Shown here piece by piece: positions 1-48,521 of a DNA stretch of 64,000 bases (the first letter of the stretch is position 1; every line of letters starts with the position of its first letter). Both the position numbers and the translations under genes were made by a program. Source of the DNA: Escherichia phage vB_EcoM_OE5505; sequence record NC_054926.1; one strand, given 5' to 3'. The notes beneath the pieces were generated by a model that ran no database searches, was not told the DNA's origin, and was given only the letters and a program-made list of their open reading frames with translations.

Positions 1-1653
<1,653 letters not shown>

Positions 1654-1681
1654 TATTAAAGCATATTAAAGAGGATTAAAA

Positions 1682-3661
1682 ATGACTTTATTATCTCCGG
1701 GCATTGAGCTCAAAGAAACTACGGTTCAAAGCACCGTGGTTAATAACTCTACTGGTACAGCAGCTTTGGCCGGTAAATTCCAGTGGGGTCCTGCTTTTCA
1801 GATTAAACAGGTTACAAACGAAGTAGATTTAGTTAATACTTTTGGTCAACCTACAGCTGAAACTGCTGACTATTTTATGTCTGCAATGAATTTCTTACAA
1901 TATGGAAATGATTTGCGAGTTGTGCGCGCTGTCGATAGAGATACCGCTAAAAACTCATCTCCGATTGCTGGTAATATTGAATACACAATTTCTACCCCAG
2001 GTAGTAACTACGCGGTTGGAGATAAAATCACGGTCAAATATGTTTCAGAAGATGTTGAAACAGAAGGTAAAATTACCGAAGTAGATGATGATGGAAAAAT
2101 TAAGAAAATTAATATTCCTACCGCAAAAATTATCGCTAAAGCAAAAGAAGTAGGTGAATATCCAGCATTAGGTTCTAATTGGACCGCGGAAATTTCTTCG
2201 TCTTCCTCTGGTTTAGCTGCAGTAATAACTCTTGGAAAAATTATTACTGATTCTGGTATTTTATTAGCTGAAATTGAAAATGCCGAAGCTGCTATGACAG
2301 CTGTTGACTTTCAGGCAAATCTCGAAAAATATGGAATTCCTGGAGTAGTAGCTCTTTATCCAGGCGAGTTGGGCGATAAAATCGAAATTGAAATCGTATC
2401 TAAAGCTGACTACGCAAAAGGTGCTTCTGCATTACTTCCAATTTATCCAGGTGGCGGAACACGCGCATCTACTGCTAAAGCGGTGTTTGGATATGGACCG
2501 CAAACTGATTCACAATACGCTATCATAGTTCGTCGCAATGATGCTATTGTTCAAAGCGTTGTTCTTTCAACAAAGCGTGGTGAAAAAGATATTTACGATA
2601 GTAACATCTATATTGATGACTTTTTCGCAAAAGGTGGTTCAGAATATATTTTCGCAACTGCGCAAAACTGGCCAGAAGGCTTCTCTGGAATTTTAACTCT
2701 GTCTGGTGGATTATCATCAAATGCTGAAGTAACAGCAGGAGATTTGATGGAAGCTTGGGACTTCTTTGCTGACCGCGAATCTGTTGACGTTCAGTTGTTT
2801 ATTGCGGGTTCTTGTGCCGGTGAATCTTTAGAAACAGCATCTACTGTCCAAAAACACGTCGTTTCAATTGGAGATGCTCGCCAAGATTGCTTAGTATTGT
2901 GCTCACCACCGCGTGAAACTGTTGTTGGAATTCCTGTAACTCGTGCTGTTGATAACTTAGTCAATTGGAGAACCGCATCAGGTTCATACACTGATAATAA
3001 CTTTAATATCAGTTCAACCTACGCAGCAATTGATGGTAACTACAAGTATCAGTATGACAAATATAATGATGTAAATCGTTGGGTTCCATTAGCAGCTGAC
3101 ATTGCTGGTTTATGCGCGAGAACTGATAACGTTTCTCAGACTTGGATGTCTCCAGCTGGTTATAATCGTGGCCAGATTCTTAACGTTATTAAACTTGCTA
3201 TTGAAACTCGTCAGGCGCAGCGCGACCGTTTATATCAAGAAGCTATCAACCCAGTAACTGGTACAGGTGGTGATGGTTACGTATTGTATGGTGATAAAAC
3301 AGCTACTTCTGTTCCTTCTCCATTTGATCATATTAACGTTCGTCGTCTGTTTAATATGTTGAAAACGAATATCGGACGTAGTTCAAAATATCGTTTGTTC
3401 GAATTAAACAACGCGTTTACTCGTTCATCATTCCGCACAGAAACTGCCCAATACTTACAGGGAATTAAAGCTCTCGGTGGAATTTATGAATATCGTGTAG
3501 TTTGCGATACAACAAATAACACTCCGTCAGTAATTGATAGAAATGAGTTTGTTGCAACATTCTACATTCAACCGGCTAGAAGCATTAACTACATTACCTT
3601 GAACTTCGTAGCAACTGCTACTGGTGCAGATTTCGATGAGTTAACTGGTCTTACAGGTTAA
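1682..3661 (+). CDS. 18: Tail sheath protein gp18
   Basis: 659-aa ORF, same length as T4 gp18; sequence recognised; position after gene 17. Confidence 0.95.
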   Translation: MTLLSPGIELKETTVQSTVVNNSTGTAALAGKFQWGPAFQIKQVTNEVDLVNTFGQPTAETADYFMSAMNFLQYGNDLRVVRAVDRDTAKNSSPIAGNIEYTISTPGSNYAVGDKITVKYVSEDVETEGKITEVDDDGKIKKINIPTAKIIAKAKEVGEYPALGSNWTAEISSSSSGLAAVITLGKIITDSGILLAEIENAEAAMTAVDFQANLEKYGIPGVVALYPGELGDKIEIEIVSKADYAKGASALLPIYPGGGTRASTAKAVFGYGPQTDSQYAIIVRRNDAIVQSVVLSTKRGEKDIYDSNIYIDDFFAKGGSEYIFATAQNWPEGFSGILTLSGGLSSNAEVTAGDLMEAWDFFADRESVDVQLFIAGSCAGESLETASTVQKHVVSIGDARQDCLVLCSPPRETVVGIPVTRAVDNLVNWRTASGSYTDNNFNISSTYAAIDGNYKYQYDKYNDVNRWVPLAADIAGLCARTDNVSQTWMSPAGYNRGQILNVIKLAIETRQAQRDRLYQEAINPVTGTGGDGYVLYGDKTATSVPSPFDHINVRRLFNMLKTNIGRSSKYRLFELNNAFTRSSFRTETAQYLQGIKALGGIYEYRVVCDTTNNTPSVIDRNEFVATFYIQPARSINYITLNFVATATGADFDELTGLTG

Positions 3662-46420: not shown

Positions 46421-47281
46421 TTACACCGCCATTTTTCCTTTAATAGGAGGGTGTGATTCATAGTTGTTAAGAACAAAATTATGCGGCTTTGCGAATTGAC
46501 TCAACCAAAATACCTGCGATTCTGTGTCCCATTCATCAAATTCATCTGGAAATTTTAATTGCAATTCGCATAAATCCATAGGTTCACGACGTAAAATTTC
46601 TTTACATTGTTCTACGTGATTCATATAGATATGAGTATTACCACCGGAAAATATCAAATCTCCCGGAATAAGATTACACATCTTAGCTACAATATGAACT
46701 AACGCAGCATATGATGCAATGTTGAATGGCAAGCCCAAGAACACGTCAACACTTCTTTGATACCACTGTAAATCCAAATAGCCATTACGCACATTAAATT
46801 GATAGAACATATGACAAGGCGGTAATGCCATCTGCTTGAGTTCAGCTGGATTCCATGCAGAAACAATTTGACGCCTATCATTTGGCAGTTTTTTAATACG
46901 ATCAATAACTTCTATAATTTGGTCTACACCGCCAAAATCACGCCACTGTTTTCCATAAATTGGACCAAGTTCACCGCTATTGTATCCTAAATCTTTTGCT
47001 TGATTTTCGTAATTTTCATCCCAGACTGTTTTGCCTTGGATTAACGAATCATGTTGAATTAATCGCAAATCATTGACATTTGTGCTTCCCGATAAAAACC
47101 ATATTAGCTCAGCAATGCAAGCTTTCCAGGCGAGCTTCTTAGTTGTTACTGCAGGAAAACCTTTAGTTAAATCCCAGCGTAATTTAGTACCGAACAAAGC
47201 AATTGTTCCTGTGCCTGTTCGGTCATCGGTTTCATAGCCATTTTCAAAAATGTCTTTAATTAAATCTTGGTATTGTTTCAT
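46421..47281 (-). CDS. td: Thymidylate synthase (no intron)
   Basis: Continuous 286-aa ORF, T4 TS length; active-site region PPCH; T4 td carries the I-TevI intron, this one does not. Confidence 0.95.
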   Translation of the reverse strand: MKQYQDLIKDIFENGYETDDRTGTGTIALFGTKLRWDLTKGFPAVTTKKLAWKACIAELIWFLSGSTNVNDLRLIQHDSLIQGKTVWDENYENQAKDLGYNSGELGPIYGKQWRDFGGVDQIIEVIDRIKKLPNDRRQIVSAWNPAELKQMALPPCHMFYQFNVRNGYLDLQWYQRSVDVFLGLPFNIASYAALVHIVAKMCNLIPGDLIFSGGNTHIYMNHVEQCKEILRREPMDLCELQLKFPDEFDEWDTESQVFWLSQFAKPHNFVLNNYESHPPIKGKMAV

Positions 47282-47326
47282 TTAGTACCTTATATAAATT
47301 ATAATACATTTTATGAAGCTAAATAA

Positions 47327-47674
47327 TCAATACGGTTTAGCATCAAATTTTCTCTCAATTTCAGGTGTGAAATATAATTCTTTACCACGTTTGGAAAAGC
47401 GACCAATAATATGATAATTATTCTCATCAAACATGATATTACCAATATCCATAGCTTTCAACCAAATATCGATATTTCTATCCAGCTTTATGTCAAAATT
47501 CCAATACGGAGAACTATTACCGAAAATACTGCAAGCGGATTCAGTGAAACAACTGCTATAAATCTTGTCTTTAGGAACTACTAATTGATAGACACCTTTA
47601 ATAAACTGAGGACCTTGCCATTTTGGCTGTTTCGCGTCTTCTTCTAATAGAATAGGGTAATAATTAAAATTCAT
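47327..47674 (-). CDS. Hypothetical protein inserted between frd and td (115 aa from ATG)
   Basis: ORF track starts at a GTG (47686); first ATG at 47674. No family recognised. Confidence 0.5.
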   Translation of the reverse strand: MNFNYYPILLEEDAKQPKWQGPQFIKGVYQLVVPKDKIYSSCFTESACSIFGNSSPYWNFDIKLDRNIDIWLKAMDIGNIMFDENNYHIIGRFSKRGKELYFTPEIERKFDAKPY

Positions 47675-47694
47675 ATTTTCCGCCACGCGTTATT

Positions 47695-48521
<827 letters not shown>

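Follow-up and report, generated by a model that had tools for sequence, protein, structure and literature searches.

The frd-td interval

The window (the whole stretch of 64,000 nt that was analysed, from Escherichia phage vB_EcoM_OE5505) has its best match in vB_EcoM_ASO78A (99.9% identity over the tested stretch) and is that of a Tequatrovirus. On its minus strand, the dihydrofolate reductase gene frd (47695..48276), identified from the ORF list and from the annotations of matching records, lies upstream of the thymidylate synthase gene td (46421..47281). The ORF list and the comparison with the T4 exons show that td is a single uninterrupted frame of 286 aa, free of intron. A first-pass annotation had placed an ORF between the end of frd at 47695 and the start of this intron-less td at 47281, and the ORF list confirms its presence. 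Hereafter, A designates this ORF and its orthologs, A' a tandem paralog and B an unrelated gene of 68 aa.

ORF A can be read on the minus strand as a GTG-started frame of 119 aa (47327..47686; ORF list) or from an ATG codon as a coding sequence of 115 aa (47327..47674; ATG 47674-47672, TGA stop 47329-47327), whose product begins with MNFNYYPILLEEDAKQPKWQGPQF and belongs to PHROG 1928, subfamily A. The possible N-terminal extension of four codons starting at GTG 47686 (47675..47686, minus strand) includes the Shine-Dalgarno (SD)-like sequence GGCGG (47680-47684). As the first-pass annotation had stated, the ribosome binding site is weak: this GGCGG motif is located 5 nt ahead of the ATG, itself 20 nt from the frd stop codon. 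The GTG is replaced by CTG in phage F2, and the ATG together with the upstream GGCGGAAAAT is invariant in the four phages compared. Because the GTG is not conserved and the ATG is, the 115-aa form, which is also the one annotated in most records, is likely the product of ORF A, and the GTG-started extension is probably not translated.

A non-coding spacer of 45 nt (47282..47326, minus strand) extends from the stop codon of ORF A to the start of td. It contains the td SD motif, AAGGT (47287-47291), and a consensus scan also found two sets of promoter-like hexamers in it. One is a sigma-70-like TTGATT-18-TATTAT putative promoter. The other, also a putative promoter, consists of AGCTTCA (47314-47320) followed 10 nt on by TATAAT (47298-47303), an arrangement resembling the MotA-box middle promoters of T4. 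Phage F2 lacks the roughly 30 nt that bear the hexamers, and A lies 13 nt from td there. A scan of the window found no terminator between ORF A and td, and no credible Rfam match to an RNA element was obtained for the ORF A region. No paralog of A was found elsewhere in the 64,000-nt window or in the T4 stretch going from nrdB to gene 32.

On the other side of frd, an ORF of 81 aa (PHROG 3183; 48276..48521, minus strand) lies directly upstream and abuts the frd start. It is also found in T2, ACG-C40 and pSs-1 and is absent from T4, in which frd.1 and frd are separated by 71 nt. It is thus a second gene of this cluster that T4 does not have.

Coding status and family of ORF A

Comparison of A in the window and in phage F2 gives 30 synonymous and 10 non-synonymous differences (dN/dS 0.049). 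A metagenomic relative (62% identity) gives a dN/dS of 0.11, and the values range from 0.05 to 0.17 across comparisons, the substitutions being concentrated at third codon positions. With such values, ORF A codes for protein: judged by its substitution pattern, it is a genuine, selected gene, and when conservation across genera is added, it is far beyond a chance ORF. It could still be argued that the ORF is spurious and that the region is only a regulatory spacer or a promoter for td, given the weak SD, the promoter-like hexamers just downstream, the lack of a named family and the lack of annotation in the T2 record LC348380. However, a regulatory spacer would be at odds with dN/dS of 0.05-0.17 and changes falling mostly at third codon positions, with protein conservation reaching down to 28% identity between genera, with a confident AlphaFold2 (AF2) fold and with a region devoid of Rfam match. 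The substitution pattern effectively rules this reading out, and we give it practically no credence.

The protein matches the PHROG 1928 HMM over its full length (E=1.2e-35, residues 8-115 against profile positions 2-125/126), and a profile built from its relatives recovers it at E=1e-33. Copies of A that are 97-100% identical occur in hundreds of Tequatrovirus records. A tblastn search retrieved 579 phage records, 218 of them at <60% identity, the latter from T4-like phages of Klebsiella, Enterobacter, Salmonella, Citrobacter, Erwinia and Serratia. Among 1.84 billion representative proteins, a profile search identified just 42 family representatives, all of 95-139 aa and single-domain. The PHROG 1928 family is restricted to T4-like phages. 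Its conserved motifs are QxKW, HG(I/V)Y, GN and IGRFxKxGxxxxFxP, and four residues (W19, G91, K95 and G97) are invariant across 44 sequences. The pI of A is about 6.6, not basic as in many nucleic-acid binders.

Hundreds of records already list A as a "hypothetical protein," and it is included in PHROG 1928. A resembles other members of this group (AR1 ar1_242, the Shfl2p237 homolog, Mineola CPT_Mineola_238 and Cronus KNT87_gp171) in size, position after frd and motifs; it is an ordinary member, with no material difference. The tandem paralog A' (e.g., Moon CPT_Moon253, STML-198 gp031, CBH8 ARW57933) also belongs to PHROG 1928. It shares with A the W, HGxY and GRFxKxGSxIxF motifs and the location in the frd-td interval, but it alone carries an insertion of about 20 residues, PTIxEYKxNPxKY, after the QKKW motif. 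A' is absent from the window and from every Tequatrovirus record examined.

The first-pass annotation could name no family for the protein, and in this it was right: Pfam and NCBIfam scans gave no match to A, A' or B, and PHROG 1928 has no assigned function. None of the three matches a PADLOC model, it being noted that PADLOC covers defence systems and that anti-defence proteins are outside its scope. A profile search of PDB sequences with A returned matches at chance level only (E >=0.03), and literature searches found no description of ORF A. In some records, A is labelled "glucose-1-phosphate adenylyltransferase" (two records) or "dihydrofolate reductase" (a few records); no profile search supports either label.

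A further label, "putative homing endonuclease," is found in some records of the BASEL collection, e.g., AugustSocin, AndreasVesalius and FelixPlatter. It raises the possibility that A is a free-standing homing endonuclease that spreads by cutting frd/td junctions lacking the ORF. Homing of the td intron and free-standing endonucleases do occur in T4 (PMC2988022), and the presence/absence polymorphism of A adjoins a known homing site. Like the seg and mob cassettes (PMC2988022), A is small, variably present between conserved genes and close to such a site. It differs from them in having no nuclease domain or motif, a stable synteny and no evidence of mobility. In particular, searches of Pfam, NCBIfam and PDB sequences matched A to no GIY-YIG, HNH, LAGLIDADG or other nuclease, and no PD-(D/E)xK or similar motif was seen, the 44 relatives giving scattered, sub-threshold, single Pfam matches. 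The residues that never vary are W, G, K and G, and no cluster of His, Asp or Glu is conserved; with 115 aa, it is shorter than T4 MobE (141 aa) and I-TevI (245 aa); and its predicted fold is an OB-like barrel. More generally, no domain indicative of a mobility function was found in Pfam scans. Finally, A is polymorphic inside Tequatrovirus and syntenic between genera, where the distribution of seg and mob genes is sporadic. The label is therefore unsupported, for want of a nuclease domain and a catalytic cluster and in view of the stable synteny, and we regard a homing endonuclease as highly improbable.

Alleles of the frd-td junction and their possible history

In the T4 record, frd extends over 145109..145690 and td ends at 145112, so that the two genes overlap by 4 nt (ATGA) and no ORF stands between them. 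The overlap that the first-pass annotation had described for T4 is thus real, and the ORF of the window, whose presence at the T4 junction would have spoken against that description, is not there. The T4 td gene is interrupted by the I-TevI intron, and the td gene of the window aligns to the two T4 exons, the intron of 1017 nt being missing. The same genes therefore flank the junction in both phages, but the window has A and no intron and T4 the reverse.

The first-pass annotation had also suggested comparing the junction across T-even genomes. This comparison yields three alleles, namely A, B and empty. The A allele, a frd-td spacer of 413 bp, is found in 361 phage records with about 89-100% identity, including T2, RB6, RB9, RB18, RB68, AR1 and Shfl2, and also T6, RB3 and RB32. 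In the T2 record LC348380, A is intact (locus 1546..1905) yet unannotated, and td is there labelled "hypothetical protein." The B-type junction accounts for about 161 records, about 137 of them from Tequatrovirus and Dhakavirus at >=95% identity and 24 from Klebsiella phages near 78%. The empty, T4-type junction occurs in 32 records, about half of which are T4 isolates or near-identical strains (T4T, RB55, RB59). Thus, Tequatrovirus alone holds at least three states: A alone (the window, T2, T6), B alone (pSs-1, ACG-C40) and none (T4). In the sister genus, Mosigvirus, the junction is likewise empty, and its sequence, TATAAATGAAACAATACC, is that of T4.

The product of B (68 aa, PHROG 9550, MSNKLKVKDVP…KGERSLGFTRKAKQM.KLGYKP) is unrelated to A, and its gene is conserved just before td. 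B replaces A in pSs-1 (2299..2505 of the examined locus) and in ACG-C40 (2303..2504 of the examined locus), where the record annotates its last 42 codons only. The short spacers of these two phages had been considered as remnants of A; this was rejected, both holding the unrelated gene B. At the nucleotide level, B is 97.5% identical in Tequatrovirus and in Dhakavirus (JS10), which suggests a recent exchange between genera.

Outside these phages, at least eight further T4-like genera have a homolog of A (28-45% identity) between frd and td, immediately following frd in all but Cronus. In some phages, all three small genes, A, A' and B, are found together. The order frd, A, A', td is observed in Gelderlandvirus (STML-198), Moonvirus (Moon) and Winklervirus (CBH8). 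It is also that of Kanagawavirus (Entb_45) and Marfavirus (Potts1), with B just before td; in a metagenomic T4-like contig, A' likewise comes after A and B stands just before td. In Jiaodavirus (Mineola), A is not followed by A', and in Roskildevirus (Erwinia phage Cronus) the order is frd, A', A, td (2059..2797 of the examined locus). A' therefore follows A in six of the eight outside loci, all but Mineola and Cronus. In Enterobacter phage Entb_45 (locus 2017..2531), the annotation splits frd into two pseudogene fragments, and the small genes downstream are intact.

In most of the outside genera, A shares part of its coordinates with the gene before it, which is frd or, in Cronus, A'. Such overlaps between the start of A and the stop of the preceding gene suggest that translation of A is coupled to that of its neighbour in most genera. 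Unlike in these genera, A does not overlap frd in the window. Identity between A and its relatives is 32-62%, that of Frd being 45-54%, and the identities of A and Td correlate (Spearman 0.41, p=0.005). A has thus diverged to about the same depth as Frd.

How the T4 and window junctions derive from each other can be considered from the sequence itself. A repeat search identified two direct copies of TAAATGAAA 417 nt apart on the minus strand. The upstream one (47693..47701; extended copy 47690-47701) covers the end of frd (final codon and stop), and the downstream one (47276..47284; extended copy 47273-47284) covers the td start codon; the extended 12-nt copies match at 11/12 positions. Removal of one TAAATGAAA copy and of the intervening DNA (417 nt) from the window gives exactly the T4 junction, GTATATAAATGAAACAATACC, and when phages carrying A are aligned to a probe of the T4 junction, the match runs exactly from TAAATGAAAC on. 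Such a footprint is equally expected from a deletion between repeats and from an insertion with target duplication, so that it does not discriminate between the two. Because it fits both directions, the case for a deletion rests on the distribution of A.

From this distribution, we infer that the ATGA overlap of T4 is probably the derived state, produced by deletion. T4 appears as the exception because at least eight genera besides Tequatrovirus have A at this locus and because, in Tequatrovirus, A is the majority allele (361 records vs 32). A deletion is also favoured by the divergence of A, as deep as that of Frd and correlated with that of Td, and by the A-A'-B arrays, from which A-only, B-only and empty states can arise by simple deletions at overlapping start and stop signals. 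The following scheme can be proposed. A would normally, and probably ancestrally, be located immediately downstream of frd and be transcribed with the frd-td-nrdA nucleotide-precursor cluster. Older arrangements would have had up to three small genes, A, A' and B, between frd and td, of which the Tequatroviruses would have retained A alone, B alone, or none. A deletion of 417 bp between the flanking TAAATGAAA repeats would then yield the T4 overlap.

Alternatively, frd and td may at first have overlapped at an empty junction, a recombination hotspot, which received an A cassette in recent times by insertion or by re-acquisition through recombination from another T4-like phage, the TAAATGAAA repeats being the footprint of the insertion. 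The direct repeat of 9-12 nt flanking the 417-bp segment is compatible with such an event, and the identical empty junctions of Mosigvirus and T4 make an empty ancestor of Tequatrovirus and Mosigvirus possible. Moreover, the junction is polymorphic, with the unrelated B as an alternative gene; the 97.5% nucleotide identity of B in Tequatrovirus and Dhakavirus shows that exchange between genera takes place there; and between the window and F2, A is 93% identical when Td and Frd are 82 and 85% identical, a sign of mosaicism. A recent arrival would, however, leave unexplained why at least eight genera besides Tequatrovirus have A here, next to a paralog, as well as its status as the majority allele. 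It also fits poorly with the absence of a mobility gene or endonuclease motif in A, with the ease with which A-A'-B arrays yield A-only and B-only junctions by simple deletions and with the independence of A from the td intron. Overall, insertion appears unlikely, and loss of A from the T4 lineage is the preferred reading.

The intron deserves a separate comment, its site being only about 550 bp from the A junction. A and the td intron are present together in 79 records (T6, RB3); many records have A without the intron (the window, T2, RB32); T4 has the intron without A, and phages of the pSs-1 type have neither. A link between the absence of A and the td intron through co-conversion was therefore rejected, all four combinations being observed, and the presence of A is not tied to the td intron, to which the first-pass annotation had pointed. 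The description of the ORF as an extra one, inserted at this place, finds little support: 361 records have it against 32 with an empty junction, and at least eight genera besides Tequatrovirus carry it at this position. As for an accessory gene at a recombination hotspot, the idea is borne out in part: the locus is variable, with at least three alleles, and A seems dispensable (see below), but it is most likely not a foreign insertion, and no mobility function is apparent in it.

Within td, two segments of the window stand out. Around the T4 intron site (~46705..46769, td nt ~513-577), about 17 differences per 65 nt are counted relative to the T4 exons, all of them synonymous; some change the entire codon, as from CGC to AGA for Arg and from TCA to AGT for Ser. 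The CNNNG cleavage motif persists (CAAAG vs CAACG), and the segment may represent an I-TevI homing site that has been recoded. Further downstream, Td residues ~244-270 (~46472..46552) read …PMDLCELQLKFPDEFDEWDTESQVFWLSQFAKPHNF… in place of the …PKELCELVISGLPYKFRYLSTKEQLKYVLKLRPKDF… of T4 and T2; the two are completely different, when the rest of the protein is ~98% identical. This C-terminal segment seems to result from a mosaic exchange within td.

Predicted fold and possible role of the A protein

AlphaFold2 modelled A with a pLDDT of 81 from 10 sequences, and of 91.2 (pTM 0.84) from 44 sequences. The predicted strands span residues 6-12, 27-34, 38-40, 48-50, 62-64, 80-82, 86-96 and 99-104, and a helix spans residues 68-77. 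The model suggests a small OB-like beta-barrel without detectable structural relative. A Foldseek search of BFVD viral models retrieved only uncharacterised proteins of T4-like phages, including phages of Pectobacterium, Serratia and Aeromonas. The known domains with which this putative barrel may be compared are the OB-fold nucleic-acid-binding ones (HIN-200, RPA/Teb1, S1 and the OB domain of the Pol epsilon B-subunit), an OB fold being a closed barrel of five strands with a helix between strands 3 and 4. The conserved residues of A are aromatic, basic or glycine (W19, Y29, G91-R92-F93-x-K95-x-G97) and not of a catalytic type. Since non-catalytic, aromatic and basic residues are conserved on an OB-like barrel, our best guess is that A is a cytoplasmic, non-enzymatic binding protein, the partner of which may be a nucleic acid or a protein.

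The constant placement after frd and the overlapping coordinates suggest co-production of A with Frd and Td at an early stage of infection. A is missing from T4, from Mosigvirus and from phages of the B type; it is therefore presumably dispensable under laboratory conditions, and any role towards Frd or Td would be non-essential. A could tentatively be viewed as an accessory or adaptor in the nucleotide-precursor module. A factor of host interaction or counter-defence is a slightly more doubtful option. It is more speculative still, and on the whole unlikely, that A and A' form an unrecognised OB-like family acting either as a non-catalytic partner or regulator of a Frd-Td/dNTP complex or as a counter-defence factor.

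When all elements are brought together, there is a good likelihood that the 115-aa protein is encoded by a real gene of PHROG 1928, that this gene probably held the position after frd ancestrally, that the T4 overlap derives from it by deletion and that the protein is a non-enzymatic binder. T4-like phages have many small genes that are uncharacterised, A among them, and nothing suggests a new kind of system; the interest of A lies in its constant linkage to frd, its tandem paralog and its lack of a structural neighbour. At the frd-td junction, T4, the reference for its phage group, is the odd one out. Its ATGA overlap is a minority allele (32 records), most simply explained by a deletion, and most of its relatives, including T2 and T6, carry at this place a small, conserved, putative protein gene. 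Were the reading of A and A' as a new beta-barrel family true, the loss of A in T4 would have hidden this family from sixty years of T4 genetics.
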